The notes beneath the pieces are model-generated. The model was not told the DNA's origin. It made no database searches and saw only the letters and a program-made list of their open reading frames with translations. Positions 8,915 through 63,500 of a DNA stretch of 64,000 nucleotides are shown in pieces (the stretch's first letter is position 1; each line of letters starts with the position of its first letter). A program made the position numbers and the translations under genes. Source of the stretch: Antedon mediterranea. Lineage: Eukaryota > Animalia > Echinodermata. The stretch spans positions 5,602,101 to 5,666,100 of the forward strand of contig NC_092677.1 of the NCBI RefSeq assembly GCF_964355755.1, read 5' to 3'.

Positions 8915-9692
8915 CAGCTCAGATTACATTTTTTAAAATCCTACATCTGTCATTGGTTTTGGTAATACTGCCCAGATAATTATAAAGTATTACGTCGATA
9001 GGGGGCTGGATATATCCATGCACTACAGCTCAGATTACATTTTTTTCAATCCTACATCTGTCATTGGTTTTGGTAATACTGCCCAGATATAAAGTATTAC
9101 GTCGATAGGGGGCTGGAGTATCCATGCACTACAGCTCAGATTACATTTTTTTCAATCCTACACCTGTCATTGGTTTTGGTAATACTGCCCAGATATAAAG
9201 TAATACGTCGATAGGGGGCTGGAGTATCCATGCACTACAGCTCAGATTACATTTTTTTCAATCCTACATCTATCATTGGTTTTGGTAATACTGCCCAGAT
9301 ATAAAGTATTACGTCGATAGGGGGCTGGATATATCCATGCACTACAGCTCAGATTACATTTTTTTTCAATCCTACATCTGTCATTGGTTTTGGTAATACT
9401 GCCCAGATATAAAGTATTACGTCGATAGGGGGCTGGATATATCCATGCACTACAGCTCAGATTACATTTTTTTCAATCCTACATCTGTCATTGGTTTTGG
9501 TAATACTGCCCAGATATAAAGTATTACGTCGATAGGGGGCTGGATATATCCATGCACTACAGCTCAGATTACATTTTTTTCAATCCTACATCTGTTATTG
9601 GTTTTGGTAATACTGCCCAGATATAAAGTATTACGTCGATAGGGGGCTGGATATATCCATGCACTACAGCTCAGATTACATTTTTTTCAATC
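8915..9692. repeat. Tandem repeat, about 107-bp unit, 7 full copies plus a partial copy
   Basis: Unit cagctcagattacatttttttcaatcctacatctgtcattggttttggtaatactgcccagatataaagtattacgtcgatagggggctggatatatccatgcacta starts at 8915, 9026, 9132, 9238, 9345, 9453, 9560 and 9667. Confidence 0.95.
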
Positions 9693-12649: not shown

Positions 12650-22532
<9,883 letters not shown>

Positions 22533-35300: not shown

Positions 35301-35803
35301 TTTCATCTTTGAACCAACTTATCGATTGTATTTTGTCATTTCGAATACCACCTCCAGCAGGAATTGTGATTATTTCACCTTCAATTATTGACAGTTCTGA
35401 CTGTGTGGCTAGAAAAAAACAACAAAAAAACACAATACAATTTTACCATCTCATTTAGTCGTGTTCGTACTGTAACCTAAACGTAAAGCTAAGTAATACC
35501 ATACTTGTAGGCAGGTGTTTTATATGTACACAGATAATGATTATTAACAGAACAATAAGAGAAAACCCTTTTACTTATACTTGGTATAGTTGGGCTCTTT
35601 ATGCTTGTGATGTCTGATGTCTCAATTTTTAAGAGATTTTTAAGTATTTAATTAGTCCTATGACACTTGCAAGTGTTGCAGTATTGGAATAAGCAAGTCT
35701 ATCATCGGAACAATAACCACTGATGTTTATTAAACTTACCGATGGCATTTTCAATAAAAAACAGTAGGACGTATACGGACAGGAACACAAATTGTGCCAT
35801 CAT
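29325..35803 (-). CDS. Ig-superfamily type I receptor A (about 688 aa): SP-Ig-Ig-TM-[split Ig with Tyr-rich insert]-Ig-Ig
   Basis: Exons 35803-35740 (MMAQFVFLSVYVLLFFIENAI), 35408-35109 (Ig), 34871-34557 (Ig), 34073-33972 (TM FILIWISVFVVVIIIGMSLGFMF), 33622-33434 (Ig first half), 33112-33082, 32995-32881, 32065-32003, 31370-31340, 30909-30757 (Ig second half), 30390-30049 (Ig), 29686-29325 (Ig and stop). All introns GT-AG, all phases compatible, 2067 nt total. Confidence 0.8.
31050..31211. mobile_element. MITE with TIR aagctctgtctacactatcaaa
   Basis: Perfect inverted termini flanked by TA. A partial copy of the right end lies at about 7192-7253. Confidence 0.8.
32201..32571. mobile_element. 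Two MITE copies of the ggttcccactag family
   Basis: gcttggttcccacta...ctagtgggaacc (32201-32317) and a left-degenerate copy ending ctagtgggaaccaagctt (32571); internal tgaccaatcacaagc as at 1060. Confidence 0.7.
33690..33788. mobile_element. Short MITE
   Basis: TIR aagctacattcacacgg / ccgtgtaaatgtagctt flanked by TA. Confidence 0.6.
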
Positions 35804-39919: not shown

Positions 39920-42195
39920 TTACTTTAAATAATCATCAAATGAAGCCATGCTCTCTGCTTGAACAATTTCTCTCTTTTTTATTATAATTTCTTGTTTGGA
40001 AATTAACTGCATTCCAATATTATACCCCTTTGTTTCTGAACCATAACTGTAAACACACACTATTCCTTCTGCTTCTTTTTTCCCTTCTTTTACACTGTAG
40101 TAAGCTAGGTCAGATTCTTCTGCATTCACTGCACCTAGTGTATTAAACTGAGACCAGGTTTTACAACCATCTTTACTTAGGTGAAGTGTAAGATCATTTG
40201 TTTTATTTCCATGACTTGCTATTGCTATTTGGTAGAAATCATCTGTTTTTGTTGGTAAACGTACGATACCACCCTTGATAATAAAATAATTTAAATGCAA
40301 TAAAATAATCGGTCATCAAATTACTGTACTGTAATATTAAAAGGCAAATATAGTTTAACCAACTCAATGAGGCAGAACATGTACATGTGTTGCAGCATTT
40401 AAAGATTATATAATTTACAAACGGTTAATATTTAAGAGTGTTATGGTATATTTCCATAATTACTGTATTGTACAAATCAATCAAAACCATTTGTTTTATA
40501 CAACATTTAAGTAGATATTGAAAAGAGTACTGTATTCACATTGTATTAATGACAGGTAGACGTGCTATAATATAGATGAAACTAAAGAAACTGACAGTAC
40601 CAACCTGGCATTCTGGATTTAGCTTTAACATGGCATCCTCATCCCTGACATCAAATGATTTAAATCCTTTATCACTGTATACATGGAAACGCTGCTTAGA
40701 ATTCTCTAATGAACAGCTGATGTAAACTCTGTTATCTGCATATTCAACAACCTATAAACAAATCACATTATGACAAATAGCCATTTAGAGGTAACTAATA
40801 ATAACAAATGCTGCTATGTTACTAATCTAATCTGAAATAAAATCCACAATTTTCAAGTTAGGCTACTTAATCATACTTGTGTGTGTTCTCCTAAAGTAGC
40901 TGCTGGTGGTTTAACATCAGTTACAATATCCCAGGTGTCACCATTATTAGTACTTGTTATCACAACTAGGCTTTCTGCAAAGCAATTTAAATTTACATTC
41001 ATTTATAATCATTTTAAATCAACTGTTCATTAAACAGTATGTTGGATATTTCTACTATTCAATGAATCATTAACCCAAACTTAGTACTGTATATTAATAT
41101 TTTGATTATTCCAAAACAAAAAAAAACAACAAAGAAACAACATTTATGAATGTTTATGAAATAATTTACTTTCTATACGCTCAACATTTGTCCAACTCCA
41201 AACTCCTGCAACAATTAAAAGCCCTAAATTTAAGCATGCACCATCACCAAGACCTAAAAAATATACAATATTGATTACGTTTTATAATAAATGTTTCATT
41301 ATAAGAAAACGGAAATAAGTAAAGAAAACATATACAGTATTTAAAAATTATTTTAAAACAATTTAAATAAAAGACAAAAAATGTGTTATTTTTACTGAAA
41401 TTACATTGTAAAAAGTAATAACATAGACTTACTCAGACTAACTCCTGGAAAGCCTTTCAAATCAAGTTGTACATCTTCTGGTCCTGTCCAGTTGGCACCA
41501 TTATCATCAGATTTCATCCTTATTATCTTCCTCTCTTTTGTGTTGTTATCTTGTCTAACACACATTAGAATCAATTTTCCCATTTTTTCATTTGTCATAA
41601 GTGGTACTAGATTCTGAAAACTGTGTTTAGAACATTATTCTTTTTGGCTAATATGTCACTTTTTAAAAGATACTTTGTATGGTAATAAAATACCAAGAAA
41701 ATCTCAAACAAAACTTAAAAAATAAATAAATGAAAAAAACATAAATTATTTCAGTTCTTGTTCTATGGTCATATCTCAATTTAATACCTTGTATCATTTT
41801 CATATAAAATCAATTTTGTTTTTTCTTCCCATTCAATCAAACTCTTTCCATTCACTCTTCCTCTTCTCATTATTACATCTGAGTTATTTTGCTCAACAAA
41901 GACAAGAACATGAGAATTTATAATGACTACTGCAGGACGTCTATAAAATAAGAGAAAAACAAATACTGTACATCTAAATGCTATAGATAAAAAGATAAAA
42001 AGAAGAATTTGTATAGTTTCCAAATCAAATAGACAAACCTATAGGCCTACTGTATTTGAAAGGCTCTAACTCTAACCCATTTTAATACTTTGTACAGTTT
42101 CAAAGGATGTACAAGCTATTAAATATCATATATTACAGACAATATTTACCTGAAATTGCTACAGGGTTCACTATCAAATGCTGCAGTTAAATAAC
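39920..42195 (-). CDS. GH33 sialidase-like beta-propeller domain (NEU2/3/4-like), predicted inactive; C-terminus of receptor B
   Basis: FRRPAV (FRIP-like), VLVFVEQ, DVIMRRG, FQNLVPL...GKLILM, Asp boxes SDDNGANW, STNNGDTW and SKDGCKTW, LGDGACLNLGLLIV, CQGGIV, ESDL, IVCVY, all in the order seen in metazoan sialidases. Confidence 0.85.
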
Positions 42196-45100
42196 CTATA
42201 AAAATATATATACAGATATGAATGTATAGGCTACACGACAACTACTGCAACTTCGCAAAAGAAACAACACCTACAGCAAGAGCAGCAACAAACCCAATAA
42301 TAATAATAATTAATTTAGAAAAAAGTAAGATATTTGTAAGATTATTTTCGGAAAAGTATTATTTATCATACTGCCATAGTTATCGTATAATATATTTGAT
42401 AAACTAGCCATGTAGGTGGAAAGATATGATATATTTTTTTAAATAATAATATTCTATTAAACTACTTACATTGTACATGCAAGTGTGCTGATTTTTTTAT
42501 TCCTTTTAATTTTCTTGTGATTTTATCTTTTCTTGTCTTAAGTCCACACATGTACTCTCCAGCATCAGTCAATGACACTTTCTCAAACTTTAAGCTTGTT
42601 TCATTATACTTATAAATTACTTTACATCTTTCAGGTACTTTTTCTTGTTCTACCTTCTTCTGTTGAGATGTATCAGAAGTAAATATCACTTTCATCCCAT
42701 CAGCAGTCTTCTTATACCAATTGACAGCTTTCACTCCTTCTTTAATTGCATACTTGCAAGTTAAAACTGCTTTATCTCCTTGTGTCACAAGACAATCATT
42801 CATTACCATGGCTAAAATATAAATATATTTTAGATGAAATTTAGTTCACAATAAATATACAAACATGGATAAATACTATAGTTAGTTTTTTATCAACACC
42901 GAAACCAGTATTAGAAATACTGTGCAAATAATTTCAATGTAAATGTTTTTTATATATTTACAAATAACAATAAATTTACTTACAGTATAGCCAAAATTTG
43001 GGAGTTTTTTTTTCTTAATTATAATTTTAACATCCAAATATTTTGAATCTGACAAGTTTTATTTTAGCTTTCATAGCTAAAATAAACATAAAGATATTTT
43101 TTTTTAGTGAAAAGAACAATGGTAATAAATATCCTTGTTATACTTACAGCCTTCAATAACTTCCAACCTGCTTGTTGATGAATAAGTTACACTATCTTTT
43201 TCTTCTTTCACAAATCCGCAACGGTAGTCACCAGTATCAGAAATGTCAACGTTTGAAATTGTAAGAAAATATGTCTGATTTTTCTTACTATATTCAAACT
43301 TAAATCTGTTGGTGTCAGCAATTTTCTTCCAATCGTCAGATTCAAATTTATATAAGCTAAATTCCTCAATTTGTTTTGAAATACAAAAATTAATCCTAGC
43401 AGTGCTTCCTGCAACAGAGTATACAGTATTTGAAACTGGATCTGAAATTTAAAAAAAAAGATTGATAATTAATATAGTAAAAATATAACCCATTAAGTCA
43501 ACAATTAAAAACATTTCTAATGGGGTCCAAAAAGATTAAAAGGATTAATAATTCAGCTAGACTCTATCTTTTTAAATCAGTAGTTGGAAATGAACTGATC
43601 AATAAAAACATATTGTGTATGGAACACATATGCGAAGGTGAAATAAAAAATTATACAATATAGTTAAATGTTGTACACTTTATAAATGCTTATAATTGTT
43701 GCGCAACATTTTCAAAACGGGTATAAAACAAGTAACACAGCAAAATCACAATAGGTGTACCAAATAAGCAATTAACAAGAATAAATAGATTGAAAAAAAC
43801 AATAAGATGAGATAGAAGAAGGATGTTTAGAGTGTTTCAAATCAAAAGCATGCAACATAGAACATTTGTTGCAAAACGTGACTTTTTAAAGAAAGTAATT
43901 TCAGGTGCAAAACTCAACTTTTTTAAGAAAGTGTTTCAATCACAGCACAGTTTTAACTATGAATACTACACTTACTTTACAATCAATCCATGATGACTAT
44001 TTTAGTCTTTAGAAAAAAAAACAATAGTTATTCAAAGAAACTCAAGGGTGATTAGGAAAAAAACCCAAAAATTCAAAATTCCAGAATCTGCTTAGAATAG
44101 ACTAAACAGGCTGAGTTTGGTGGTTCATGGCTAATACATGGTAGCCATTGAAGTATATAATTACTTGACTCAACAATTCAGCCCTCAACATATTTCTGGA
44201 AAAATATACTTTGTATTTAATCTAGGTGAGGTGTATTAAAAATCATGCAATTTACAGTATAACAAATATAATATATATATATATAAATATAATACTCTTA
44301 TTCAGATAATACTCTTATTCAGACTCCACCCTGGCTCCCTTTGTTATATTTCTTTTATTCCTGTCCACCCAGGCAGCACTTGCCAGCTTTATACTATGAC
44401 GTTATCCAAATTCCTTCACTTGCACTGATGAAGGGCTAGTGTTGCCCGAAAGCTCTGCTAACTTTTCTGGCTGTTTACTTTATCGTTTTGATTTAGCTTT
44501 TCGCTTTTTATTTTTGTATCTCCATTGAGATCCAGCCACTGATACCCACAGCATTGTCATTTTTTTCAGTAATTTGCCTTTGGATTTATAATATATATAT
44601 ATATATACATACAGGATAACAAATATAATATATATATATATAAATATGTAATATCAAGAGTAGTGGTGATTATATAATCTAGAATTAATATAGTAATTTC
44701 AGAAGATGCAACCATGTGTAACATATTCACAAACTAAAACATTTTCTGGTTAAAGCATTGCATAGTTAAAGCATTGCATGCTTAAAGAAAGGCAACATAT
44801 GGAAATTCCCAACAAAAAGAAAAACATTTTAGCACTTTATTCTAAATTCCAAAAAAAAAAGAGCAAAAAAAAGAAATTAAAATTGTACATTCTCATCTTT
44901 AAAAAAATGCAAGCACTACAGCAGTTTTATGACAAAAATTAGGAAAATTATATGTTCTTGGCATTGATAATAAAAACATAGCATTTTTTACTGTCCTAAC
45001 GATTATGTAAATGCAGCCTTCATCATACATTGTTACTACCTGTCTTCATCTTGAGCTGGTAAATACAACAGTAATAGCAGAAGTGGAGAAAGGCAGGAAA

Positions 45101-48100
45101 CGTTCACGATCTATTTGCTCATAAAACACACTCAGCATTTGAATAACCTTTTTTATGTTGCTCTTTCAACAGAATTTATCATAATTTCCCATCACTTGGA
45201 ACACTAATAACAGTATAATTAGCTTGATGTGGCAGAATTATATTAAACCAATGACATCCTCTGGTTGGCAGAAACTGTAATATATGTGACAAATTGGTTG
45301 ACAATCTTTAGTGAAAAAACGTTTCCTTCCGCAGTTTTTGGGACCTCTTAAATGGGAATTGGTTACTGTCTCCCTTTGGAATTGTTTTCCTACAGTATCT
45401 TTATCCGTCTGGCAACTTTGATTGCTAAAACTAATTTTCTTAATCTTCTGGTATTTATTTGTTATTAAGTACTTTGAGGCTTTTAACATTATGCGCTACA
45501 TAATCTAGAATTATTATTTTTTTTGTTGGGAACCAATAATTACTACTTTACAATAAACAAAATTACTATCCTTATAAAGAGCAATTGAAAAAAACATATT
45601 TTTATTCGAAATTTGAACTTTAATTCATACAATTTACATAACATGCAAAATACAACACTAAATTAAAACAAGACAAATTTATAATCACTCAAATATCTAG
45701 TAGGTTAATGAGACGTAATCTCTTAAATACATGATGAGCATCTAATTTATGGATCCACAGTAACAATGAGACTAAAATCAAAAAAGACCCTGTGCATACA
45801 AACTGTAATGATCATCTGGCATTTGTATATAAATTTCAACTAATAACATTCCACAACAACTGTATATTTTCTGTCTTCCTTCAACTTCTACTTCACATAT
45901 GTATATTCCTTCATCTTCAGATTTAATGTTTCTGATTTCAAGACACACCTTATTCTTATTAATATATGCACATTGACAGGGTAATCCTAAATTGGTTTTT
46001 AAATTTTCAGGTGAGTTTATTGATGTCAGGAAGGTCTTTGCTTCTCCTCCAGCATGCTTATACCACTTGATATCGGATATTACAGCTGAATCATCAAAGT
46101 ATGTTATATTTAAAAACAATTCAACATATTTTCATCCCTCATTAGTAGTAACATCAGGAATCTCCATTTTGAGAGCAGCTATAAAAACAAGACCAGGAGA
46201 CAATAATTCTTTAAAACTGAATTTTATTACTGGACTTGATTTGCAGTATTTAGCTTAAAAAATGCTTTACCTACTTTATTTAAGAAATTGCATTTGACTA
46301 TTTTAAAATCATTCATATAATTATTAATTGTATAGCATTTTATTTTATCTTTATCTGTATTCTGTTGAGTTTTATGTTGTCAGATGAATTTGAGATCTAG
46401 AAATTAAATTTCTAATATAGTTGTCAACTCATAATGATTAATGGAAGATACACACTTGGAGAAAAATAAAATGCATTACCTTATACACAGAAAAATAGAA
46501 TAGTAGTACTTTAGGGTTAAGTGTCTTTAGTTTTGGGGTTTTTCAATGCCTTGGGTATTTAATAGAGGTAACTAATACAGTATTCATGAGTGTTTTAAGC
46601 ACTGATTTGCCACCACCACACAATGTGAGAAGAGCTGCTTTAGATCTAGGTGATCAAGATAGTAATAAGTTTTGGATTATTTAAAAAACCTAAAAAAAAA
46701 AGTTTTCCTTGGTATGTACAACCATAATGACTAAATATTTTACTTTAACAATACAAATTTAAGGTCTTACTTTCCTAGATAGAAATTGTACTGATATCCT
46801 AATATTTAGAACTGTCAATTCAATCTTGTCTTTTGTCCGTAACGTACATATTTTCGCAGTTCTATTTTTAGCAACAGGATTCTTTCACATTAACTTTTTT
46901 TTGGAAAGGGGGTATGTGGTATATTTAATATATAGAATTTAAACCAATTACCAGAACATTTTTATCAATTGATTTTCGACTTAGACTCCATGATTTAGAA
47001 AAACCAAAATAATAATAGTAGTAGCTTTTACTTTTGTAAAATATAAGGGCCTGAGGCCTATTTCATGTTCGAATAAAATCTTGAATTGAATTGATAATAT
47101 TTTGTTTGTCCGTCCTTTTCGTTGAATAACACTCTTTTACATCAAGCACAATACAATTTTCATCTTTGATAATTATTATGATGATTTCTGAAGTCACATT
47201 TTGCAGAGGAACTGTAAATAAAGTAACACATTACCTTCCTTAACTGTCAGCTGTGTAGAATCTTCCAGCTTCTTTTCTCCATCAACTGGCTTCACTTCAC
47301 ATTGATACTTCCCAGCATTACCAAGTATAAAATTCTTTATCTTCAAAGACAGAATGCTATTTTGGTAACTTGTTACTTCAAATCTGCCATCTTTAGAACC
47401 ATCCTTAATCTCTGTTGTGCCATCTTCCTTAATCTTCTTCCACTTGTAACCTGTTAATGGCATATCTGCTGGTCCATATCTGCACTTCATTTCAAAATTA
47501 CTGACACCACGTTCTGTTGAGTAGTTTGGATTTACCATTTCAATCCCTTCAAAAAATGTGAACATTTTAGATAACAATTTTGTGCAGTTTGATTTCCATT
47601 TTCAAATAGATTAAGAACATACACATAGTAGTATTTTGTCAAAAAAGAATGAAGCTGACTTCATTTTAATAACCTTTTATAGGATATTTTAAATATTCTT
47701 TTCTGTATTCCAATAAAAATAAATGATACTGTTTTTTTCAAATATTATGTGCATATATTGTATATTTAACTTATGTCATCAACACTTTCTATAGAGTATC
47801 TTATAGGGATATTAAAGAAACAAATTATAAAAACTCACAATAAACAGATAAATTGTTGACACCTCGATACTGCTGTCTACTGCCATCTATGCTGCAGTGG
47901 TACTCTCCTGAATGAGATCTCACAGGATTTGGAATTGTTAGGTTGATGCCTCCTCTACCATTTGTAGACACTGAAAAAACATAAATTAAATACACAATTG
48001 TTTTCCCATAAATTGAGCTTTCAGTTTGAAATAAAATATTTTCTTTTTTTTGTTATTCATCTAAACTGAGACATTTGAATTATATTCTGAACTATGTTAT

Positions 48101-51100
48101 GTTTTACAAGGGAAGAGTGAAATTAAGTTTCACCAATCCACTATAAAATAAATGCAACCTTTTTAAACTAGCTTATAGGAATATGCAGTCGTTCCTGTAG
48201 TATAAATTAAAAGAAAATAGATGTGTTGTTACTTACTTGTATATGAACTTGATCTAAAAAAAAGAAGCAATATGAAAATAAATAAAATCAAGTAATTGCT
48301 TAACCAGAGTTGAAAGATAATCTATATTAGGCATAATAATTGAGTATTCATTAATTTCTGTTCCATTAAAATAGCGGTCATAAAATAAATAATTTTTATT
48401 CTGTTCACTATTATATACTAGAAAAAGATCTTTAAATATCAAATAAAATCAACTTATTCTTTCAAATCAAAATAAGGTAAACACATAACTTCTTAATTCC
48501 TTTTTTTTTGTAAAATGAAAACAGAATAAAAATAATAAAGCTCATTAAAAGGCTTTTTTTTTTTTTTTTGAAATATATATTTAAAAATAATTTGTTGTTG
48601 AAAAAGCCATGTTAAGGTCACATACAGGTTATTTATATTTATATTTCCTTGATAAACCGTAATTTAAAGAAAAGCAAATAGGCAACCAGAAGCCCATTTA
48701 TTTTAAATAAGCAAATTAATTTGACTTTTTTAAAATCAGCAAATTAATTTAAAAAAATTAAAACTGGAATATCTAAATTGGTGTGATTTAATTCATCGTT
48801 ATTGGTTATATTTTGTGGGACAATACATTTTTAAATATAAATAGTAGAGATTATGAATACAATACCAACAAATTGACACAGAAATATTATATCAATTTAT
48901 TATATTATATAAACATTGCAGCAAGCATCAATATTGATGCATGTTGCTCTAACCATTATTTGTGTAATTTGTTTGTAGACAGAACTAAATGTAAGCAAGC
49001 AATGAATGAAGGAAAACATTACAGTAGTACATGATGATATAAACAGCAACAAGAGTAAGCAGGAGAATATCTTAGAATCCAATGGTACATGATAAAAATA
49101 AATGCTAATAATAATATATGTATATAACAATAAATGCTAATGTAAATGCTATTTTACAAGCAACAGTAGATGATGAAAAGAAAAAAGGTATTGTAGGAGG
49201 CACAGTAGCAAGCAAATTAAACAGGCAACCCATAAGCCAAAGTTAAAGATAAATTATTCAAAATATGTTTTAGATTTAAAGTGCATCAAACCTGTGAATT
49301 AAAATACAATTGTAGCTTAATTCCGATTTGAATAATTTGTTTGTAAGAAGATATTGAACACTGATAAAAATTGGAAATCATTATTTATCTCCATTTTATG
49401 TTTTCGCACCAATTAATAATTGATTAATAGGCACACTTTTTAAAATCACATTCATTTTCATGCCGTGATTGAGAATTACACTATGCCATACAGTGCTCAC
49501 AGAATTTGAAGAAGGTTGCCTTCCAAATTCTTTGATGTCCTTTAGCGATAGCCAAATGAAAAAGAAATAACAAACTTGTAGACGAATATAATTTTGCAAT
49601 AAAATATATTACCACACATTCCACAAACCATTACCTTTTAGGTGAGTCATTTGCTAGGACAATAAAAAAATAAACAAAGAATACATTCAGTAAAGTTTTA
49701 AAAGTGACCAAGGTGTTTTGCAAAAGGTAATGACAAACTTATTTATTTCAGTTTCATCTTTTTTGCCTTAACACCAAAGCTACAGTATAATATAGAGTAA
49801 AGAAACGGTCTGCTTTAAGAAATAGAAATTCACAATTATTAATTAATATTAATTAAAACAATAAAAATACAATGAAAGATATGCAACAATATAATTATGA
49901 TTATTATGTATAAATATGCTTTACTCTGTAATAAGGACAAATACTTTCCTCAATTTGTAATTTGTTTTGTTGTATAATAAATTAGATTGTATTGTATCTT
50001 TAAAATGCATGTTTTTACTTCTTTCTTTTACTTTTTTACTATGTCAACATCATTATAGTTTACATAATGCAATGTAAAGCAATACAAAGAGTTAGACCTT
50101 TATTTTGTTTAAATTGTCACATTCTTTGAAATACCAAGTATCTGACAACATTTAGACTGGAACTCAAGTTCAAGTCTTTTAGCAAAAATGGCAACTGTAA
50201 CCTTTAACATTCAAAAGTCTACAAATAAATGGTTTTTAACAAAAAAATATGCAAAGAACAGAATATTTTTTCTTTTTATCTAGCTTTTAGTGTATAAGTT
50301 TTGCTTGAAGTTCCATGAACATACAAATCCAAGCTAAATACAGATACCACAACTGACCTAGTCATACCTACTGTACTTACGAATCTCAGCTCACAAGTCA
50401 CATATGTCTTAATGATTCAAATAAGACTGAAGATTTTAATATTTTTAATATTTTTATTTTTTTGGTTTAAAAAGATATATTGCCCACCTAAACAATTTTT
50501 ATTTTTTTATATTTTGTTGTTGAATGTATGCCATTTTAATTTCACATAGTTATTCACTTTGACTAAAAATTGGATCACCAAAAAATGATTTACCTTTAAA
50601 AAACTGTAATTTAAATTTAATTGTTTATTTATTTTTTTTTTTACAAGTGAAATCAGTATGTTTGTTGTTTTTTTTCCTATGGAAGTGAACAACATTAAAA
50701 CTGCAAAATCTGGTTTATTAATCTTTATTTTTCATTATTTGGGTGACAATACATCTTTAAAAAAAAGCAGAAAAAAGATGCTGAAAAAAATGTCTAAAAC
50801 CCATGTGTGTAGATGTAAGACTAGATCAAGAATAACGACTTTACTGTCATACGTGCCCATGCATTTTTTCAAAATTATACTTATATTTAGAATTTATTAT
50901 CAACAAACATTATGCTTGACCAATTTTTAAGAGCTGAAGAATGGGTTAGCTTGAACTAATAACTACTGAAGGTACAATTATGATGACTTCATTTGCAATA
51001 CCTAGGTTTGTCATATACTGCACAGCAAACTTCCTATGTACACAAACCCAGCACAAGTGCTTACAAGAATATTTCCAAACTCAACAACCAGTTATTGGTA

Positions 51101-54100
51101 GTTCAACGAGATCAACCAAGATATTTTCAGTCTGCTTAATATTTTATTTACATCACATGGTGAGAATCTTGTTGAATGTTATTAATGTATCATATCTTCT
51201 GCATGTGGTCTTGGACAGCATGTGATTAATAAAATGGCCATTTGTTTTTTTTATAGTAAAATTAAATGCATTTTTGCTTTTTTTAAAGTATTTTGTTTTA
51301 CCTTTAGGATGTAGCACTCCTTCTGATAATTCAAAATAAGAAGTTTGTGCTTCGGTTCTTTTTATTTTCTTAGATGTACTGGGACGTAAATCGAGATCAA
51401 CATATTTTATCTCTTTCTATAAATAATTAAAATAGATAACTACATAAACATAACAAATGACACCTGTTAAATACATTCATTGTTCAACAAGGTACTTTCT
51501 TCAATTGGTCGGATTGAAAATATTGTTATTTTTGCAACAATTGGTTTTGTTAGATTATCAGCAATCAAATGTTTCTACATCTAAGTGTACTGTATAAACT
51601 TACAGGTTTCACAGATTCAGGTAGTATTTTTTTATCTTTTCCAGATATTCCTATGATGACAAAATATCAACTTTACATAAAATTGAAAACACTATATTTG
51701 GTTTTTTTAAAAAGATCAATAATGCTAGATCTCAAATTGAACCAAATCTAAGAGCAGTGATTATTATTAAGTTTTACTTGTTCTATTTCAAAACAAAAAA
51801 AATGGTTTAAAAGTTATGATCTTAAAATTTAAGTAACCACAAGTAAAAGGTGTGACATTATAGTACCATAATAGTGTTGTGGTTAATTGCAAAAATCCAA
51901 AAATTGCACAATATTGTAATAGAAAGGTTAACATTATTTTAAAAAAATCATCCGCAACTACTGTACTAACAATTTTAATTATAGCAAAAAACAAAGCAAA
52001 AACTTTAAAAAAAATTGTTTTAAATGATATCACCAGTAGGGTTTCTGCCATGTCCTAAATCCGCATAAGTGACGGGTTTATCTTTCTTCTGTGAAAATAT
52101 TTAAATTACATAAATTTGGAATCGGAAATCATTTTGGAAATAAATCATAAATTTCAAAGGTTTCATTTGTTTCTATTTATGGTTTAGAGACTATCACAAA
52201 TTGTAAACAAAAGTGATTTAATAAATAATATTGATTTCTTTACATTTTTCAAATTTAACTACATAAAACTGATTTCTTTTATAAAGCTTTTAAAGTAAAA
52301 CAATTTCTTACTGTAATACTTCTGCCAATGCGTCTTCCTTAATAATTAAATAAAGAAGATAGTATAATTTAATAAGAACAAAGTATTTTAATCTTAGTAT
52401 AAAATAATACTGTTTAACATTTTCAGTGAACAATTCACATAAAAAGTCCCCAGCATTTCAATAGTGCTGCAGTACTTTATTCACGGGAGGTACCAACCAA
52501 GAAAGAAATTGCTTGGCCTTTCTCTTTTTCATTTCATTTCATTTATTTATTTGACCAACAAAACATAATATACAATGTACAAAGATGAATTGGTCAGGGA
52601 CTGCTAAAGTAATACGATTACTGTAACTACAAGAGTCAGCAGTCCAATGATCTTAACTAAAATATATAATTTTATGAACAAATAAAGTAAAAAGCTGTGA
52701 GTATACAACAAAAAAAAGAACAAAAATGATATACAAAAAAGTTGAATAAAATAGTATTAGTATTTTAGTTACATTTTTAATTAAGTTCAGAAGAAAACAC
52801 TGTATTCTGGTAGATCTTGTGTAATGTAGCATCTACTGTAAATAGTAACAAAATATAATATGTACATCTTGAAGTTGTTGCCACTTTGATTTTCCTTAGT
52901 GAGCAAGACACAACACACTAGAGCCTAACACTTTAGTAGAATAATACAGTAGATATGAAAACCATTGTTCTATATGAGCATAGGTGTAGATGTTTCTTAT
53001 CTAGTTTTAAATAATACACTGTTCTTCTGTTTTATTGCTGTACAGTAGGTAACTATGAGTTTTACAACATGACTGCTAAGCAGTAATCAAGCACTTACTG
53101 AATATTGTTTTTATTATTTACTGTGGAAGGGTAGATATTTTCGGGATGGTAATGTACACTATAAAACATCACACTACATACTACATTCACAAAATTAAAT
53201 GGTCAATAAATGCAAGATCTAAGAATTAAGATTCAATTAAAAATTCCTATTTGGACTGTTTATCTTTCTTATACCAGCAGCTTAAAGCTGAACAGAGATT
53301 AATGGTTAGGTTTACAGTACCTTCATATTCAGCATTTCCACCAGATGTTCCTTGATGTTCTGCTAAATGTTCTTCATCTTCATCATCAGGATTTATCTTT
53401 GAAATAAAACATTTTTAATGCAGTTCAGGCTGATGCTAGCAAGAAATTTTCTTTGCCAAAATATCAAAAAGTTAGAAAATTGTTTATCCTGACAATAGAA
53501 ATAATAATAAACATGACCAACCTCAAACCTTTGTCCGGATATAGCAGAGATTGTTATTGGCTGTTGTTGGCTATGTGAACTTGATGTGATGAAAACTTCT
53601 GTTTCATTGTCCATCATCTGATACTCTTCACCACTTCTAATACCACAGTACATATGACAAATACAAATTAAAATTAAACTACAGCATGGACCTTTGGAGC
53701 GTCTTTCATGAAAGTTCATATTTAAACAAATCTGTGTTGCATTTAAAAAATTGGTTATTGATCTCTAAAGATTTCAAATTATTTCTATTTAATGTATAAA
53801 CGTTACTAAACTCACCTGTTTCCATGTCTCTTATCTTTATTTTTGTATCTAACTATTAAATAAACATAACAGATATTTGACCAGAAACAAACAAAACAAT
53901 TATCTCTTATGAAGTGAATTAATGTATAGTATTAATATTGTACATATGAATGTTATTATTAGTAAACATACCCTAGTAAAGTACAATAATGAACATTTTT
54001 ACTTTGAGCAATTGTATGTCACATGAATTTCCGTATGGACAAATAAAATGAACTATGAACTATGAACTATAATTGCAACAATTCACTCAACATTTTAAAC

Positions 54101-57100
54101 TATTTTTTAGCCCATCAGCAACCAATCAGATATAGAGGGCAGTGTTACTGAAATTGGCTGATAAAATACAAAAAATAACACACATACAGTGCAATACATT
54201 TTAAATAGTCATTCCATTTACAACCCTGAATGTTCAACATATGATTCATCTATTGAATTAAAGATGTATTGTTCCTTGAAACACAAAAAATGAAGGTCAA
54301 AATATTCTAAATTTAAATTGGGTATATCAAAGTAATATTAAAGTTAGTAAAAAATTCGAGCCAAAAACAACAAGTTTACGTAATTAACAGGTAAAATTTG
54401 ATTACATTTCGTCTGGAAAATCGTTGCTAGCGAAAGTAAACTAAGATTTCAAACCACAAGTATGCATTATGCATTGCTAATTTGTTTTCAACTCGTCACG
54501 GTTGAGAAGGTGTTTTCACACAGATCGGGAGGAAGTTTATGATTATGCATACAGAGTAGCCAAACAAATCGTGTTGCATTATGGGATATATTTTGATCGA
54601 AAACTTTGACTGGAAGTAAAAAAAACGTCTGTATTTCAGATAAATGATTTTTTGGTGAACGTTAATAACTATTATGATACTTCAAAATGACCCACCTTTT
54701 TTCGAAATCTTTTTTTTTTTTTTTTTTTTAAATTAGTCAAAGGGACAATACATCTAAAGGGACAATACATAAAAAGAAAGTAATTAACTAATTATCATAT
54801 GAAACTATCATAAAAACTCACAGGGAATGTCCCATTTTCTGCCTAGTCTATTAACAAAAAATGTAGTGTTTTCCCACCGACACTACAGTGAAATACAAAT
54901 TTGTTTTGCAATGAGAATATTCATATCCGCAATGAGGAAAACTTCATATTAGACAGACTGGTAATCATTAATAAAGTTATCTAATGTACTATATATAAAT
55001 GATATCATTAATAGTAGTAGATAACTATATTTATGATTATCATAGATATTTTAAAAATAATAAAAAGATATTACTTACATGATTTGATGCAGTATTCAAC
55101 ACAAAAAAATCCACAAAAGTAAAGGCAGCAATAACAGACAAACTGACAGACTGTTTTCCAACTACTGAATTGCTGTTGATTTGAACCAATCACCTTGTCT
55201 TCTTTTTTTATTTCAACCGTCTTGAACCTTGCAATACTTGGACGGTATTTAAAACTCATCTCAACTGGTTTACCACCTTCAACTGTCACTGTATTAATAT
55301 CTGTATTGCTCCACTCAATATTCTTGTAATACATAAAATCTAAAAATAAAAATTTAAACAATCTTACCCATAAAAAAAAAATTAATACAATCATATAAAT
55401 AAATTATTTGCTGAACAGAATACTATATTAAATACAATACCGTATTTATTCATAAAATTAATAAATTTAACAATCTCATTTGTCGCTAAGGGCCTGTTTG
55501 GACAAACAGTAATTGAATATGTAAGATTGACGCATGCGGCGAATACATCTTGGCCAAGGGAATAAAAAGTGCAAACAATTAACTACTAACTTTACCGTGT
55601 ATTTCAAAAACTAGCGAACAAGATTTGTTTTGATAGTCTTCACCTCTACACCATACATTATTGTACATTCCTATCCTGACAAACTATTCAAAACTTTCTA
55701 TATAAAAGTCAAAGATAGTAAGGTCTCGGGTCCATTCTGCAGTTGCCACAGATTGACTTCTTCATCAGTACTTCTATGAATGGATGATTAGTTGGGAACA
55801 TGAACGCTAGTTAATCATACCCAGTACCGTTTTGATCGTATGATCATTCGGGAAAACACCTCACAATGCTGCGAAGGTACATCATCATTAAAGCAAATTA
55901 AACTCATATTGTCAAGTTAGGCAATGGCAGCTACAGTATATCGGCTGAATTATCGTTATACATAATTCGGTCTCAATTTGTAAGGTTGATCACAAAAAAA
56001 CGACAGAAAATAGTAGTAGTTTATGGAAGATCATGACGGCAGTGGTACCGTCGCATGTGGGATAAAACTGGAATTATAACACAGTACAATTTTGACTGGT
56101 GGTCATATGAAATATGACTTTGACAACGTAAAATTTTTAACGTTTAATGTGTAAACTTGTCTAGCACATATAAAAGCCAAAGGTTGAGAACACTTGATTT
56201 GATCCAATTAAAAATAACCAATAAAGGAACTGAAAGTGAAATAGTTTCAAAGATAATCTCAATGTGCATGCTATTCAATTGATAATAATATTAAATAAAT
56301 TAATAATTCAGGGAAAAGATGCTTTACTTACAAACAAGGAGCAGTAACCATAGGAACAGACAAACAACAATCAAAGCAATCAGGATGATATAGAATGATC
56401 CTGGACCTGCTGGAATAATAATTCAGTATTTTCCAATTATTATTATTATTATATTTATATATGTATCATTTTTTTGTAGAATCAGTTACAAATAATTTAA
56501 AAACCTGTATTTATCAATTTTTAAAATTCAGATGAAATACTGTGACTGTCACTGTCAAGTAAACGTTGTGGCTGTACCAATATACAGTTTGCTGATTTTA
56601 TTAGATCATGCTGATATGCCGCAATGATTATAATAATGTGGCCATGGCAACAGACAAAATAAACATTTTACTATAGCCTGCAATTCTATTTGTTTTGAGA
56701 TTGCCATATACAAAATTTCTATATCAGTTCCTTGTTTTTAGGACCCAAGTGGAAATAAGTTTTTAACTTTTCTTGGCATTCCTTGTAATCAAGGCCTGTG
56801 TTTCTGTGCAATTGTTTTTTCTACTTTTTTTTTTGCATTGTTTTTATTGTTTTTTAACCTTGATTACTAAATAAAGAAATTCAAATTCAAATTAAAAAAA
56901 CTTACTCAATTTTAGTATGGTAAATAAGTACATAAGTGGGTTTGAGTCCCACACAGAAATTACTGCACTTGCATATATTTCCGCAAGTATTCTCAATGTA
57001 CTTAGTATAAAGTACAAATTACGTCAGAGTAGGGCAAAACATTATTTATTATTTGTTTGTTGTTATTTAAAAAATACACAATCAACACTTGTTTTGCACT

Positions 57101-60100
57101 GTTAGTGAAACATCTATAAAGCTAACAAAAACATGAATTGAAACAAAGTATAAATTAAAACAAAAGCATAATTTTAAAAATAAAATAAAAATGTATAAAG
57201 AACACTGCATCGATACTACCACAATAATATCAAAATTGAAACCTGTCATAAGAAAACATAATATTGTCAATCATGACAATTTTAATGACTGTATTGTTTT
57301 TTAATACATAAAATTTGTTAACCAGCACTATTGTTAAACTGATTAAAAACGAAGTTGTAACATCTTTAAATGTATTTTTCTTCTTCTTTCTTATCTATGG
57401 TGAACTTGCATCTTAATAAATAGTATGGGAAATTTCTAATCTTTTTTTAGCCCTTAGGTGAAAGTGAATTAAAATGGCTTTCAAAAAATGAATTATTGAA
57501 TTACCTTTTCAGTGGGACAATCTTTAAATTTAAAGCAGGTTTTTTTTAGATCATGACGGCAGGTACGGTCGCATGTGGAAAAAACTGGAATTATAACACA
57601 GTACAATTTTGACTGGGGGTCATTGAAATATGACCTTGACAATGTAAATTCCTTTGAGTTTACTGTGTAAACTTGACTAGCACATATAAAAGCCAAGGTT
57701 GAGAAAACTTGATTTGATCAAATTAAAAATAAACAATAAAGGAACTTGAAAGTGAAATAGTTTCAAAGAAAATTTCTAATCTTTTTTTAGCCCATTTAGG
57801 TGAAAGTGAATTAAAATGGCTTTCAAAAAATGACTTATTGAATCACCTATTCAGTGGGACAATCTTTAATTTAAAAGCAGGTTTTTTATGTTACCCCTAA
57901 TTATTATATTGCTGTGAACAAAGCTCCTATTTCTATGAACTTATGAGTCACTGTAGCTTTGTGAATGAAATTAAAGCATATCTCCACAAAATAAGAAAAG
58001 GAAACTTAATTTGCCAATGGTTCATTGCAAATACAAAAACAACTGAGTTTCAATAAGACATAAAAACAAAACAAAAATTGATTTCTAGCCAAATTATCAA
58101 GGACATTTTGTTTTTATATATTTTTGAGAAATGTTCAAGAATAATCTAATCATATGTTCATCACTAATAACTACACAAAAACAACAGTTCCAATCAGACA
58201 TAAAAACAAAACTTGATTTCTAGCCAAATTATCAAGGAAGTTTTGTTTTTTATTTTTTGGGAAATTTCCAAATACCGTAATCATAAGCGATTGCCTTTAC
58301 TATTCTTCTTAAAGGTGGCAATCCTGATCAAAATTCATTAACAATGGAAAAAAAACAGCTACAGTACACATTCTATTCTCTCGTATTACCCACTAGTTCA
58401 GACTACCTGCACTTTTATGCCCGACGATACATCATCAAAAGCATATTGATTGAAATATCTACATACATGCTGTACATGGTGTACCACAAACTTTATAGCA
58501 ACATATTCTCTCTATTCATAAAGGCTTTTGCAACAATTCACTATTTGCCCCAATCGTAAGAAAAGTTTCATTGTTTGTGTCTTATTGGATTGCATTTCTG
58601 CTGACAGGATGTTAGGTCATTGTATTACGTCTAAATAAACATAATGCAAAGGATAATAAGCAGGATATCCGTACATTAAAACTAAGAAACAGTTTAAATA
58701 ACAATTTAAGTTTATACAATGTTAAATTTAGTATAATTACCGACATTACAGTTTTCTAGTGTTGTTGTCTCATTAAGCCTTGCATTCTCTGCATAGCAAG
58801 TAAGAATTGATTGACATATCTCAATTTTTATAGTTGTTGTATTTTCTTCGTTCTCAGCCACTTTTCCATCTTGTAATATCAATACTAATGATGGCTTGGG
58901 ATGGCCATCTGCTGTACATGTTGCAATACCATCTTCAGATGTAAAAGTAACAGTGATATCTAAATGAAAAATATCAGTTAATTTCAATTTAATGTGATAT
59001 GTTTTAATTAAATTTTGCGATACACCATGATATGTAGTTCTAAAAAATTTAGTTTTTCGACGCTACGATCATTTTAGAAGTGAGGTGTTGTCCTGAGGAT
59101 GGAAACTTTGAGAAACTCAACCATTTTTTTAGACATACGTGTAAACTGCAAACTTATATAACATATTGATTTTTGCCATGTTGGATATGGTGAATGAGGT
59201 AGAAAATCACTGAACCTAGTTGTGTAGCTTGGCTAGTACTAATAGAGATAGGATCATACTCATTTGAATGAATCAAAATACGAATATTAACATCCACATT
59301 GTATTAAAAATGGGAATATTTCCATGGATTGAAAATTCAATTAATTAGACAAAAAATCATTTTTTATGGTTTACATACAATATACTATCAAGTGTTTTCC
59401 TTCACTTGTTTTAGCATTCTCTCCTTTAAACTGATCACTTTCTGCTTTACATGTATAATTCCCAGCATCTTCTTCAGTAGCTGATTTAATCTTAAGAACC
59501 GACTCTGTACTGTTATTTGCAATCTCATATCTAGAAGGGTTGTTGGTGTTGACTGTCTGTCCATCCTTATACCAAGTAATGTGAGGAATAGGATCACCAT
59601 CAGGTATACTACAGGTAAAGGTCACTAATTGACCTTCGTAGATAGTACTTTCTGAGGCAATAAGAAGTGGTTGATCCAAGTCTGAGGTAAACAATTAAAT
59701 GCAAGAAAATATGCAACATTATTCTTAGCAGTAAACTATAAACCACTATTAATATTATCAAACACTTCTTTAAATCACTTTCAGAGGTTTATACAATTCT
59801 AATACGTTTGGGAACATTTATCTATGCTACATTGATTTGCCAGATGATTTGTTATTTCTTTAAATATAAAAAATGATTTTCTATTTGAAACACAACAAAA
59901 TAATCACTACATATTTTATTTACACATATGATATAATAATTATATTGAAATAGTGTGTTTACTTACAATATACAGTTAGAATAGATGGATTTGATTGTTC
60001 AGTATATCCATCATTTTTACGTATCTCACAGTGAAATATTTTTTTAGAATCACCTCTCATTGGCTGTGAAATCCCCAAGTCAGCTTTTCTAGGTGTTATG

Positions 60101-60582
60101 TTCAATGTAAAACGTCCATTGTTTAACTTCTTATCATTTACAAGGTTTGAATTGATGATGAATCCATCTTCATTTAGTTCATCCCATTGTATTACATCAG
60201 GTGCAGTAGTAAATTGTGAATAATCACAAGTCATCACCACTTCAGCATCACCTTCCTTGGCTGTCTGGTTGGCTGCTGTCACCAACTGACAATGTGCTTC
60301 TGCAAATTAAACATACAAACGTGTTATAACCCTTTTAAAATGCCAGAGAGAATAATGATCCTAAATTGTGTAACCATGTGAGATGCAAAATACAAAATTG
60401 TAGGCTGATGTAAACATTGTAGTGGTCGTTAATAAACCACTAGGGTAAGTGATTAATTAAGATGGAAACATTTTAAGAAATACTGTATTTAACTTTAATC
60501 AAAGCAGCTTACCTTTTATAGTAATATCCAGTAATATTACTACAGCTACAAAAGACTGAAATAATAAACAAGAAATATTCAT
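39920..60582 (-). CDS. Ig-superfamily type I receptor B (about 1326 aa): SP-Ig-Ig-Ig-TM-[split Ig with ITIM-bearing insert]-Ig-Ig-Ig-pseudo-sialidase
   Basis: Exons 60582-60513 (MNISCLLFQSFVAVVILLDITIK), 60299-59967, 59681-59379, 58959-58741 (3 Ig), 56409-56332 (TM FYIILIALIVVCLFLWLLLLV), 55339-55079 (Ig first half and Cys-rich stretch). Small exons 54842-54822, 53852-53816, 53636-53522, 53396-53321, 52337-52312, 52088-52034, 51650-51604, 51416-51302, 49653-49635, 49539-49501, 48253-48237. Then 47970-47839 (Ig second half), 47546-47235, 43441-43148, 42811-42470 (Ig), and 42195-42150, 41940-41788, 41620-41433, 41253-41170, 40974-40877, 40751-40605, 40273-39920 (sialidase fold). Total 3981 nt, in frame if the damaged exon at 46178 is skipped. 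The smallest exons are tentative. Confidence 0.7.
43148..43441 (-). CDS. Ig-domain exon absent from the ORF track
   Basis: Phase 1-1 exon: DPVSNTVYSVAGSTARINFCISKQIEEFSLYKFESDDWKKIADTNRFKFEYSKKNQTYFLTISNVDISDTGDYRCGFVKEEKDSVTYSSTSRLEVIEG. Confidence 0.88.
44291..44615 (+). mobile_element. Penelope-like element fragment in a (TA)n tract
   Basis: Contains the hammerhead, matches 39420-39578 in reverse, and is flanked by duplicated aacaaatataatatatatatatataaatat (about 44261-44290 and 44618-44647). Confidence 0.65.
44422..44458 (+). ncRNA. Minimal type I hammerhead ribozyme motif (Penelope-associated)
   Basis: gca-CTGATGA-a-gggc-tagtgtt-gccc-GAA-AGCT-C-tgc: intact core, 4-bp stem II, palindromic AGCT in place of stem III, and gca/tgc stem I. 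Confidence 0.8.
45778..46178 (-). pseudogene. Damaged Ig exon inside receptor B (in-frame TGA, no donor site)
   Basis: Phase-1 acceptor at 46178; AALKMEIPDVTTNEG*KYVELFLNITY...IKWYK...LEIRNIKSEDEGIYICEVE; TGA at 46134-46132; no GT after the G strand (GMLLVE). Confidence 0.75.
50473..50756. mobile_element. Kolobok-like non-autonomous element
   Basis: agatatattgcccacc ... gggtgacaatacatct followed by TTAA. Confidence 0.55.
54262..54755. mobile_element. Kolobok-like non-autonomous element
   Basis: TTAA-agatgtattgttcc ... gggacaatacatct; the right end is locally duplicated. Confidence 0.6.
56029..57890. repeat. Direct repeats flanking the TM exon of receptor B
   Basis: About 220-bp block gatcatgacggcag...gaaatagtttcaaaga at 56029-56251 and 57549-57769; about 115-bp block aaatttctaatctttttttagccc... 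at about 57430 and 57770. Confidence 0.8.
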
Positions 60583-63500
60583 TAAAAAAAGTGCTACAAT
60601 TCTTTATGTTTATTTTTACTGGAATTTGCCAATTTTATAAATAAATTAACATCAGACTTGAATAAAAAGTAATTTCTAATTTCAATATTAACAGCAAGTT
60701 GTTCATTTACTTGGAAAGTTCGGATGGCACTCACAAAAACAGTGATGCCGTAGTCAAATACTCGACGTCATAAAAGTATAAAATATCTTGGTATCTTTAT
60801 TTCAATTTAAAAAAACCTTAAAACAGCCAAAAAGCTTGATTTAGGATTTTTTTACAAAAGGCCTTCAATTAAAAACATCAATTACAAACTTGATTTCATA
60901 TAAAAAATATAGTGGTAATTACATTTATAGCAGTATCATCATCATCATCATCATCATAAAAAACGTTATATTGTTGTTTGTAGTATAAATGCCACAAATA
61001 ACGGTTTACAACAATGATATCATTATGTTATGTATTATCATGTAATCTATTTATTCTTTCCTTAGTATTATTTTGTCCGTCAATTATCTTTCAATCAATT
61101 TCATCTGGCTATGTCAATTTTTCAGAGTATATTCCTTATGGCCAGGAATCAATGTGATTATCTTGTCACGATGCACAATCAAAAATTATGCACAATTTAA
61201 CGAAATCATGTTTCAATGTAATCATATCTATCACAATTAAACCAAATTTGTTTGTTCATAAATTTCAGGTCATATTTCATCATATGGCAATTCAATTACA
61301 TGCGTAGCAAATATAACGCATGCGTAAGGATGCTTAAAATTTTAAAAATTGTCAACATTTATTTTCGTTGAAATCAGAGTATGTTTCAGGCAATTTTAAG
61401 TGTTTAAAAAATTGCCATGAATGATTTCTGTTTTACAACCTTTCTTTAGTAATTTCATCATATTTTATTCACTTTTCAACTTGAAACCATGTTATATAAG
61501 CATGTCATTTCCTTAAAGTGTATGTATCATATGTATGATTATGAAATTAAGAGAAAAAAAGTTGATTACATCATCACTAATTGCATATTAAACACAAAAA
61601 TAATTTAAATGAATGAATTAAATCTAGTTTTATTTCATTTTTGGTTGTGATAAAATTAACTTCCAGTCACGTTGCGCTGCTTGACTGTCACATTTGAAAT
61701 TGGTAATGTTTTATTGTGGCCACGCTATTTTGTATAAGTCGCTATATACATTTTCGTCATTTAGATTATATTGTCCCTCTGAATTTTGTTGTTGTTGTTA
61801 AAAGGGTCCTACAGTAGATACTGTTAGTGTTCTAGTCTAGAACTTAACTTAAACCAAAGCTAAAATATACCTAGTCAAGACTTCTTACTGGTAGCCTTAA
61901 TGGCGGTGGTGCGAAGAATTGTCTAATTTTGTAATAAAATTATTTGCTTACTTTCATCATTTAAATTCACTCTCTGACCTCCTATCATCGATAGTCGATC
62001 CAGTCCAGATTTTTCTGTGCACAATAGAAAGAAAAACTATTCACAAATATTTATAAGCTGCCCATTGTCCAATCACAGAGTGATTTATTTTTGTTCTAAT
62101 CACTTTCATTTATAAAATTTGCACTGGATATTTGGGCACTCTACAAAATAAAAAAAAAAGAAGAAAAATATGAGGAGCAACTGGTCATGTATATAAAAAT
62201 ACGATATAAAGATTAAAGCATATCATATAGAAGGAGTGGCATGCAAAAAAAAAAACATGGGTCTAGGCCTAGGTCCAGCCTGTGTATTTTTAAAGGCCAG
62301 GTGCAGGCAAAAAATCATATTTATCCAATAATTATCGATCTATAGTTTCCCCTATATGTTTCATAATTTTTGGGATTTTATTTGTGTTACACGAGCTTGT
62401 TGGAAATGGATTAAGGAATAGAAGGATATGCATCAGTTTGAGATCAAAGCTTCCATGACTCTAACCGCCGACAATGTAAAAACAAAATAAACAATTTAAT
62501 TAACCGTTGTTAACAATGAAATGGTCGTGTGCCTATATATTGTTTACTGCACATGCTCAACAACCTTTAACCTTGTTGGCTATGCTACTCACGTTTACTT
62601 AATTGTTTGAATATGATGACCTTTTCAAATTAAAAACAAAGTTCATATGTCTGAAGGAAAATGTTTTGAGTAATAACATTATTGAAAATTGGAAGAAAAT
62701 TGATAACGTTTACGCGATATGCGCTCTATTGAATGTGACGAAGGTCTAAATTTCACATGAATTCATATCTACAACTCATTACCTTTTAGAATAATTTTTA
62801 AAAATGGGGGGTCACCAGCCATCTCGGACAGCTATAATCGATCGAAAAAAGGCATATTTTTATACAAATTTGCATATAATGGCCCATTTTCAAGCGCACG
62901 ATTTTTAAAGTTTGACGTGCATGTGTGTCATTATTTTAAATTCATAATTCATCAAAAATGAAAGGAACTTATCCCAAAAGGTATATACAGAACAAAATCA
63001 AGTGCAAAAACGGTTTGTCTAAGCTGCGCGAGAGCTAAGTACGTAAAAGTGAGCATTTTATAACTTTCAAAGCGCGCGTACGCGCGAAAATACCAAGGTT
63101 CAAAATTTTGCTGATGATACAGGAAGATGACCCTTGACATGAAGCATCCGTGTGTCCAAGTTTCATTCGAAAAAGGCTGTTTCGTGTTAGTTTTGAATTT
63201 ATAGTCATATTTTCATTAAACCATTTGTTGCACAACTACATATACGTGCATCTGCTGGCCAAGTTGCAACATAACTGCTACCACCGTTTTTGAGATCTGC
63301 TGCTGCGGACAAAAAATGAGCAGACTAAAAAATGAAATCTTTGACAATAACAATAATTACTAATATAACTTGAATTTTACGTTTCTTGGCCTAGTTAGTA
63401 TTTTAACTTCAGAGTTCACTGTATTTTCATGCTAGGCCTATATAGAGCAAACATTTTTCACAGTATATCCACCATCTTTTTTCACCTTCTAGGGAGTCAC

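Follow-up and report, generated by a model that had tools for sequence, protein, structure and literature searches.

Inhibitory receptors of the immunoglobulin superfamily (IgSF) that carry an ITIM (immunoreceptor tyrosine-based inhibitory motif) are type I membrane proteins, exemplified in vertebrates by Siglec/CD22, PD-1, CEACAM1 and LILRB. To our knowledge, their tails contain no immunoglobulin (Ig) domains. Class III receptor tyrosine kinases (PDGFR, KIT, CSF1R) have a juxtamembrane cytosolic kinase that is split by a disordered insert bearing YxxM and other phosphotyrosine docking sites. According to the available part of a preprint, the Alr proteins of the cnidarian Hydractinia are ITIM-bearing IgSF receptors (bioRxiv 10.1101/2022.03.04.482883). 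The cytoplasmic Ig-like domain 20 of filamin C (gamma-filamin) is described, in the accessible text, as interrupted by a 78-aa insert that has an exon to itself and is responsible for binding and targeting (PMC2192634). Among echinoderms, the sea cucumber membrane receptor AjNLR-new has a reported intracellular Ig that recruits cytosolic partners, again in the part of the report available (PMC13133943). The subject of this study is gene B, which lies with its sister gene A on the minus strand of a 64,000-nt stretch of AT-rich animal DNA from the crinoid Antedon mediterranea (the window; coordinates are positions in it). We propose that the product of gene B is a crinoid Ig receptor that crosses the membrane once, that its likely cytoplasmic part starts with an Ig predicted to be split in the C'-D loop by an insert, comprising a Cys-rich helix, a YxxM motif and an alternatively spliced ITIM pair, and that the protein is likely a tunable inhibitory receptor. 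The probability of this reading was put at about 0.55.

Gene B corresponds to RefSeq XP_071958880-882 (isoforms X1-X3), an exact match to the window. A chain of 19 exons with AG/GT at every internal splice site translates exactly to X1 (P0008, 747 aa), and in this chain the exon with the first Ig half (half1, 55339-55079) reaches the exon with the second half (half2, 47970-47839) in frame. The RefSeq annotation is the source for transcript-level joining of the exons and for cassette skipping in X3. X1 and X2 differ at a NAGNAG acceptor, while X3 omits four exons carrying both ITIMs and the motif TSYFEL. Since micro-exons of 17-26 nt and isoforms of this kind usually come from transcripts, the exons of 17, 19 and 26 nt, the NAGNAG pair and the skipped cassette suggest that the models are transcript-guided. 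The peptides and coordinates given for the halves and motifs in an initial annotation, which was made from the sequence alone, were all recovered on the minus strand, and the in-frame joining it had proposed through small exons is borne out by the three isoforms and by the same join in six paralog models. The encoded order is signal peptide, Ig, Ig, short Ig, transmembrane (TM) helix, 55-residue half1, 27-residue Cys-rich helix, basic patch, insert, half2, a whole Ig (c1), and 15 residues before an in-frame TGA. The features of the locus are given below.

60513-61960, minus: end of the start-codon exon (61960-61952) and signal-peptide exon (60555-60513), from the exact RefSeq X1 chain; hydrophobic N-terminus
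59967-60299, minus: ectodomain Ig1, V-like, from the exon chain; AlphaFold predicted local distance difference test (pLDDT) about 70-80
59379-59681, minus: ectodomain Ig2, I-set; Pfam Ig_3/I-set, residues 139-211
58741-58959, minus: ectodomain Ig3, short, C2-like, from the exon chain and AlphaFold model
56332-56409, minus: transmembrane exon, the sole strong TM helix; Kyte-Doolittle mean 3.5, summed insertion energy -7.8, modelled helix 306-333
55163-55339, minus: half1, putative strands A'-B-C-C', without B-strand Cys and C-strand Trp
55079-55162, minus: Cys-rich helix followed by basic residues, inside the first-half exon; 7 Cys, 6 on one helical face
53321-53852, minus: shared insert exons 53852-53816, 53636/53633-53522 (YxxM, NAGNAG acceptor) and 53396-53321, from the exon chain
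51302-52337, minus: gene-B-only ITIM cassette, exons 52337-52312, 52088-52034 (VTYADL), 51650-51604 and 51416-51302 (IKYVDL, TSYFEL); skipped in X3
48237-49653, minus: micro-exons 49653-49635 and 48253-48237, from the exon chain
47839-47970, minus: half2, strands E-F-G, from Pfam V-set and profile-profile matches
47235-47546, minus: complete post-TM Ig c1; Pfam V-set E 2.5e-6
45820-46178, minus: next Ig exon, with an in-frame TGA at 46134-46132 after 15 codons; the Ig reading goes on past the stop
39923-43445, minus: two more Igs and a sialidase-like (BNR_2) propeller, separately annotated as gene XP_071959374 (P0015), no signal peptide or TM
29325-35803, minus: sister gene A, encoding a signal peptide, two Ig, a TM, a split Ig (Tyr-rich insert, ~80 aa) and two more Ig

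A homology search started from the first-half exon found 7 proteins in a set of 18 candidates; every one was an A. mediterranea RefSeq model, and 2 were 100% identical. The six paralog models (P0003, P0004, P0005, P0010, P0011 and P0021) share the TM-half1-insert-half2-c1 core, and the join from TM through half1 and insert to half2 is found in 7/7 family models that contain half1 and TM. The Cys helix is present in 6 of these 7 models, EEYxMM in 5, and the ITIM cassette in 1 (gene B). When a profile of the first-half exon was run against 1.84 billion representatives, it gave 7 matches, namely 5 from Antedon, 1 Anneissia japonica fragment and 1 crystallin-repeat protein (P0020), which was dropped as spurious. 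As far as seen, in sequences from Antedon plus the single Anneissia fragment, the family appears confined to crinoids.

The join could also be an annotation artefact in which two genes are read through, one an ordinary ITIM receptor that ends before 47970 and the other a separate cytosolic Ig(-propeller) protein that starts from the Met at the head of half2. P0018 is modelled from exactly that Met, P0015-P0017 are stand-alone Ig/propeller models, and a candidate exon at 48194 runs into a stop in each of the three frames after at most about 30 nt. This account has to contend with the presence of the join in seven models on two chromosome-scale contigs, and with the half2-head Met codon itself, which spans the 48237/47970 splice. 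It would also need a further explanation for an orphan first half before the tail and an orphan second half after it, in A as well as B. We regard it as highly improbable. P0018, which is on another contig, has neither signal peptide nor TM and continues after half2 through Igs to the propeller; its start is possibly an internal start, or the model possibly incomplete.

The initial annotation had held that gene B contains the same split Ig as gene A. For half2 the Ig assignment is clear, with a match to Pfam V-set positions 72-102/109 (E 0.014) and a profile-profile probability of 95% (E 2e-8). Half1 is more modest than had been claimed, with a profile-profile score of 17.8 (E 0.005). The profile coverage of the two halves is complementary and in order, half1 taking positions 5-36 and half2 positions 62-100 of 101. 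A hidden Markov model was built from 32 intact local Igs. Half1 alone scored 7.5 bits against it and was weakly in register with A'-B-C, and the joined gene B halves scored 23.2 bits, which beat 30/30 controls with shuffled half1 (maximum 19.5). Half1 resembles the head of c1 and, together with the Cys helix, is among the best-conserved parts (72-89%). The joined domain keeps the F-strand Cys and lacks the B-strand Cys and C-strand Trp; the Anneissia relative has a Trp at the C-strand position and retains half1 and the Cys helix. The 17-nt micro-exon would supply the bulk of the likely D strand (SYTM), and a short stretch related to the micro-exon sequence occurs upstream of half2 in paralog DNA contigs.

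A second split Ig is seen in P0010 and P0021: one of their later post-TM Igs has, in its C'-D loop, an array of an 8-residue Ser/Pro/Asp/Thr repeat. Because this proline-rich repeat occupies the same loop, the C'-D loop appears to tolerate inserts.

Structure prediction, which the initial annotation had called for, was carried out with AlphaFold; it folded the halves of sister gene A and did not fold those of gene B. Joined, the gene A halves score 37.8 bits and show a single 80-residue gap at C'-D relative to nine intact Igs. They are modelled as a V-set fold at pLDDT 85-98, with V-set structural matches and a disordered insert. The RefSeq model of gene A (XP_071958507) begins at an internal Met, and a signal-peptide exon and two Ig exons upstream, at 35803-34557 on the minus strand, splice in frame to its TM exon. 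The first Ig of gene A lacks both canonical cysteines, a condition shared with CD2/CEACAM N-domains.

Several results weigh against a single split domain in gene B. Half1 had no Pfam match, and its profile-profile score was topped by at least one of 100 shuffles (mean 9.3, maximum 20.3). The join gave no clear gain over shuffled half1 in 3/6 members of the B family, P0004, P0011 and, nearly, P0003. The AlphaFold model of X2 had pLDDT <50 over residues 330-645, from an alignment that was shallow at 7 sequences, and the alignment behind the gene A model was built from intact Igs, which makes it partly circular. The Anneissia record stops before any second half. Tree building with 42 domains placed the joined B domain on a long branch in an unresolved group with ecto-Ig1 and c1, separate from the gene A domain; a single clade of the A and B split domains was neither shown nor rejected (approximately unbiased test, p-AU 0.29, for a subset of 29 domains taken from gene A and 4 of the 8 proteins). 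An alignment of the gene B split region with intact Igs was discarded, as it had set the C-strand Trp against the wrong residue.

The same results could mean that the halves are relics. The topology would stay cytosolic, the halves would no longer make one domain, half1 and the Cys helix would be a new membrane-proximal module, and the insert would be a disordered ITIM tail of the ordinary kind, with cytosolic Igs after it. The unfolded AlphaFold model, the weak half1 scores and the long branch all fit this account, as do the loss of Cys and Trp from half1 with Cys retained in half2, and the separation of the halves by up to 170 residues and a membrane-bound helix. It sits poorly with the conservation of both halves (65-87%, vs 38-53% for the insert), with their complementary, ordered profile coverage, and with gene A, whose model shows that such a split can fold. 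We consider relic halves unlikely and retain the split domain as the preferred reading.

The insert had been described as 11 exons of about 567 nt. As annotated it has 9 exons and 507 nt. An open chain of 11 exons and 564 nt does exist when two candidate exons, 53120-53099 and 52835-52801, are added; both are outside X1, X2 and X3, and this chain is probably the origin of the earlier figure. A 39-nt candidate exon at 49539-49501 preserves the reading frame. Another of 53 nt at 48357-48305 was rejected, as it broke the frame in every combination tried.

The ITIMs claimed for the insert, VTYADL and IKYVDL, exceed chance by shuffling (100,000 shuffles, with patterns picked after the motifs had been seen). 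In the 81-aa cassette 3/3 tyrosines fall in motifs, with P = 0.008 for at least two ITIMs and P = 0.0002 for at least two ITIMs plus one T-x-Y-x-x-[VIL]. The corresponding values for the whole 169-aa insert are 0.019 and 0.0009. YxxM by itself is not beyond chance (P = 0.08) and is retained as EEYxMM in 5/7 family models. TSYFEL has an L where the strict consensus of the immunoreceptor tyrosine-based switch motif has V or I. The ITIMs lie C-terminal to the TM, in isoforms X1 and X2 only. The cassette is found in just 1/7 family models, gene B itself, which counts against the reading proposed here. The cassette has no likeness to anything else in the window, and its source is perhaps the tail of another receptor.

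A short phase 1-2 exon followed by a 115-nt phase 2-0 exon does occur in both gene A and gene B, as the initial annotation had noted. The common ancestry of the inserts that it had drawn from this pattern is not supported: the inserts have no sequence likeness (best blastp E 1.4), and the argument from 115 nt was rejected as uninformative. The stretch matching this exon is 49-88 aa in the six paralogs vs 38 aa in gene B.

The tyrosine motifs had been offered as grounds for placing the loop and its flanking Ig halves in the cytoplasm. They serve poorly for this, since gene B alone has the ITIM cassette, and X3 lacks it through splicing. The location itself is likely, because a single strong TM lies behind a signal peptide, because of the distribution of N-glycosylation sequons, and because one paralog is without the Cys helix. 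Gene B has a signal peptide, an Ig ectodomain and one strong TM. Across six models, sequons before the TM number 41 vs 21.2 expected, a twofold enrichment, and those after it 51 vs 47.1, which is background; the paralogs in this count are not independent, which lessens its weight. P0021 is without the Cys helix, yet all its downstream domains are kept and >900 downstream residues are nearly identical to those of P0010. From the sequence, the post-TM part with its insert and Ig halves is quite probably cytosolic.

The Cys helix is the critical element here. It had gone unmentioned in the initial annotation. It is hydrophobic over its 27 residues and is followed by 3-6 K/R within 15 residues, and as a TM it is marginal, with a summed energy of +0.7 to +1.8 vs -6 to -8 for TM1. 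An in-frame internal donor in gene B (GT at 55147) could excise 69 nt, most of the helix. Several post-TM Igs lack the B-strand Cys and others have extra cysteines. Certain features count against a cytosolic location. With its 15-residue apolar core the helix could span the membrane, and P0021 may be an annotation patch. Many post-TM Igs retain the canonical Cys pair, and the last two Igs of gene A have canonical Cys pairs and 4 sequons vs 2.0 expected.

Were the Cys helix a second TM, half1 would be a short cytosolic loop, and the insert, half2, further Igs and propeller would lie outside the cell as an Ig stalk that ends in a sialic-acid-binding pseudo-sialidase, with the tyrosine motifs idle. 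The Kyte-Doolittle value of the helix (1.75-2.0), the DxGxYxC kept in most post-TM Igs, the 3 sequons vs 1.6 expected in half2 and c1 of gene B, and the S/T/P-rich insert of P0005 are compatible with this topology, and a lectin-like propeller would suit an outside location. The basic residues after the helix, the background level of post-TM sequons overall and the intact remainder of P0021 are harder to reconcile with it. It would further place complementary halves on opposite sides of the membrane, and gene A, laid out in the same way, shows no further hydrophobic stretch after its TM. A two-pass protein is improbable in our judgement. A cytosolic position of the motifs is favoured, conditional on the Cys helix not crossing the membrane, and the helix is likely palmitoylated and lying on it.

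Under the single-pass, split-Ig reading, ligand binding by Ig1-3 would lead to tyrosine phosphorylation of the looped-out insert. Y508, Y539 and Y561 (X1 numbering), present in X1 and X2 only, would recruit a tandem-SH2 phosphatase of the SHP-1/2 type, while the family-wide EEYxMM would recruit PI3K p85 in all isoforms. The palmitoylated Cys helix would tether the loop at the inner leaflet, and the two Ig halves would clamp the ends of the insert and display it in the manner of the kinase insert of a receptor kinase. Cassette skipping would turn the inhibitory arm off. The additional cytosolic Igs of the paralogs, and their probably inactive sialidase propeller, might act as a scaffold; the propeller might alternatively be a ligand-binding module.

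Five of the paralog models run on through further Igs into this propeller, for which reason gene B reads as a truncated member of the family, the in-frame TGA at 46134 cutting off the downstream Igs and propeller. Four of the 7 propeller-bearing matches are models without signal peptide or TM. The propeller is a BNR_2 domain with Asp boxes (Pfam E 1e-12 to 1e-20) and matches the sialidase NanI (PDB 2bf6) with E 4e-5. In the NanI alignment the Arg equivalent to R555, a catalytic residue of NanI and the second of the Arg triad, is replaced by Ser/Cys; the Glu is kept. The third Arg and the nucleophile Tyr lie outside the aligned stretch, and the Tyr is apparently replaced, with ESDL in place of the pattern YSDL. 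By these residues the propeller is probably catalytically dead. A further, incomplete copy of the sialidase-like exons, which looks decayed, lies after the first at 39215-37165 on the minus strand (tblastn). In DNA runs the c1 exon (47270-47509) has a summed contig depth tens of times higher than the adjacent intron, and half2 one several times higher; this is a hint, not a count, that the copy number of c1-like exons is far above that of the proteins found.

Pfam scans of the family models found no NACHT domain. ESM Atlas gave no usable match for the post-insert part of P0003, and PDB searches with whole proteins were dominated by generic Igs. For the TM-to-half2 part, the nearest ESM Atlas clusters were fasciclin-3, pIgR-like, CEACAM1-like and CD22, with scores of 0.89-0.91 that serve as leads only.

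Elsewhere in the window, open reading frames on the plus strand at 3099-8759 give receptor tyrosine kinase exons (FN3-like, TM, and kinase with HRDLAARN and DFG). Those at 12635-22529, also plus, give exons that resemble those of a BACE-type membrane aspartic protease. Tandem arrays lie at 8915-9692 (107 bp units, 7.2 copies) and 27767-29033 (85-285 bp units).

More tentatively, and at somewhat less than even odds, the family may be a crinoid receptor class with Igs on both sides of the membrane. Its juxtamembrane cytosolic Ig would be made from two halves around an exon-shuffled, splice-tunable loop with a palmitoylated helix and phosphotyrosine motifs, its cytosolic Ig array would be capped by a dead sialidase, and gene B would have become inhibitory through ITIM gain and propeller loss. 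The usual teaching is that IgSF receptors have Ig outside and a short motif tail inside; folded cytosolic Igs, including a split one that displays ITIM and YxxM, would widen that rule if true. Gene B would then be a non-chordate deuterostome case of splice-controlled ITIM signalling, in an emerging regeneration model, and would illustrate how a receptor family gains inhibitory members through exon-cassette capture and gene fission. The narrow range, Antedon and one Anneissia fragment, limits the general weight.

Each element has a precedent, whether ITIM IgSF receptor, insert in a cytoplasmic Ig-like domain or echinoderm receptor with an Ig inside the cell; our literature search did not turn up the combination. 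In that full-text search, which left most subscription papers outside its coverage, no paper was recognised by title and start of abstract as describing the family or layout. Filamin C differs from gene B in its filamin-type fold, its role as a cytoskeletal cross-linker, its single-exon insert and its want of a TM, and the accessible text mentions no phosphotyrosine motifs (PMC2192634). AjNLR-new has two TMs and a NACHT domain, and nothing in the available part of the report describes its Ig as split or mentions an Ig ectodomain or ITIM insert (PMC13133943). It was not among the matches of the homology or profile searches with the first-half exon, and the gene B family lacks the NACHT domain of the echinoderm Ig-TM-NACHT receptors (AjNLRC4, AjNLR-new). 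With class III receptor tyrosine kinases the likeness is an analogy only, the host domain being a kinase there and an Ig in gene B. The BNR_2 propeller is common to GH33 sialidases (Clostridium perfringens NanI, animal NEU1-4), and the family version is fused behind cytosol-type Igs in a receptor. With ITIM IgSF receptors gene B shares the signal peptide, an ectodomain of V-like and further Igs, one TM, an [ILVS]xYxx[ILV] tail and membership of a tandem gene family; it differs in that two Ig halves flank its motifs and more Igs come after them, to which its paralogs add a sialidase-like propeller.

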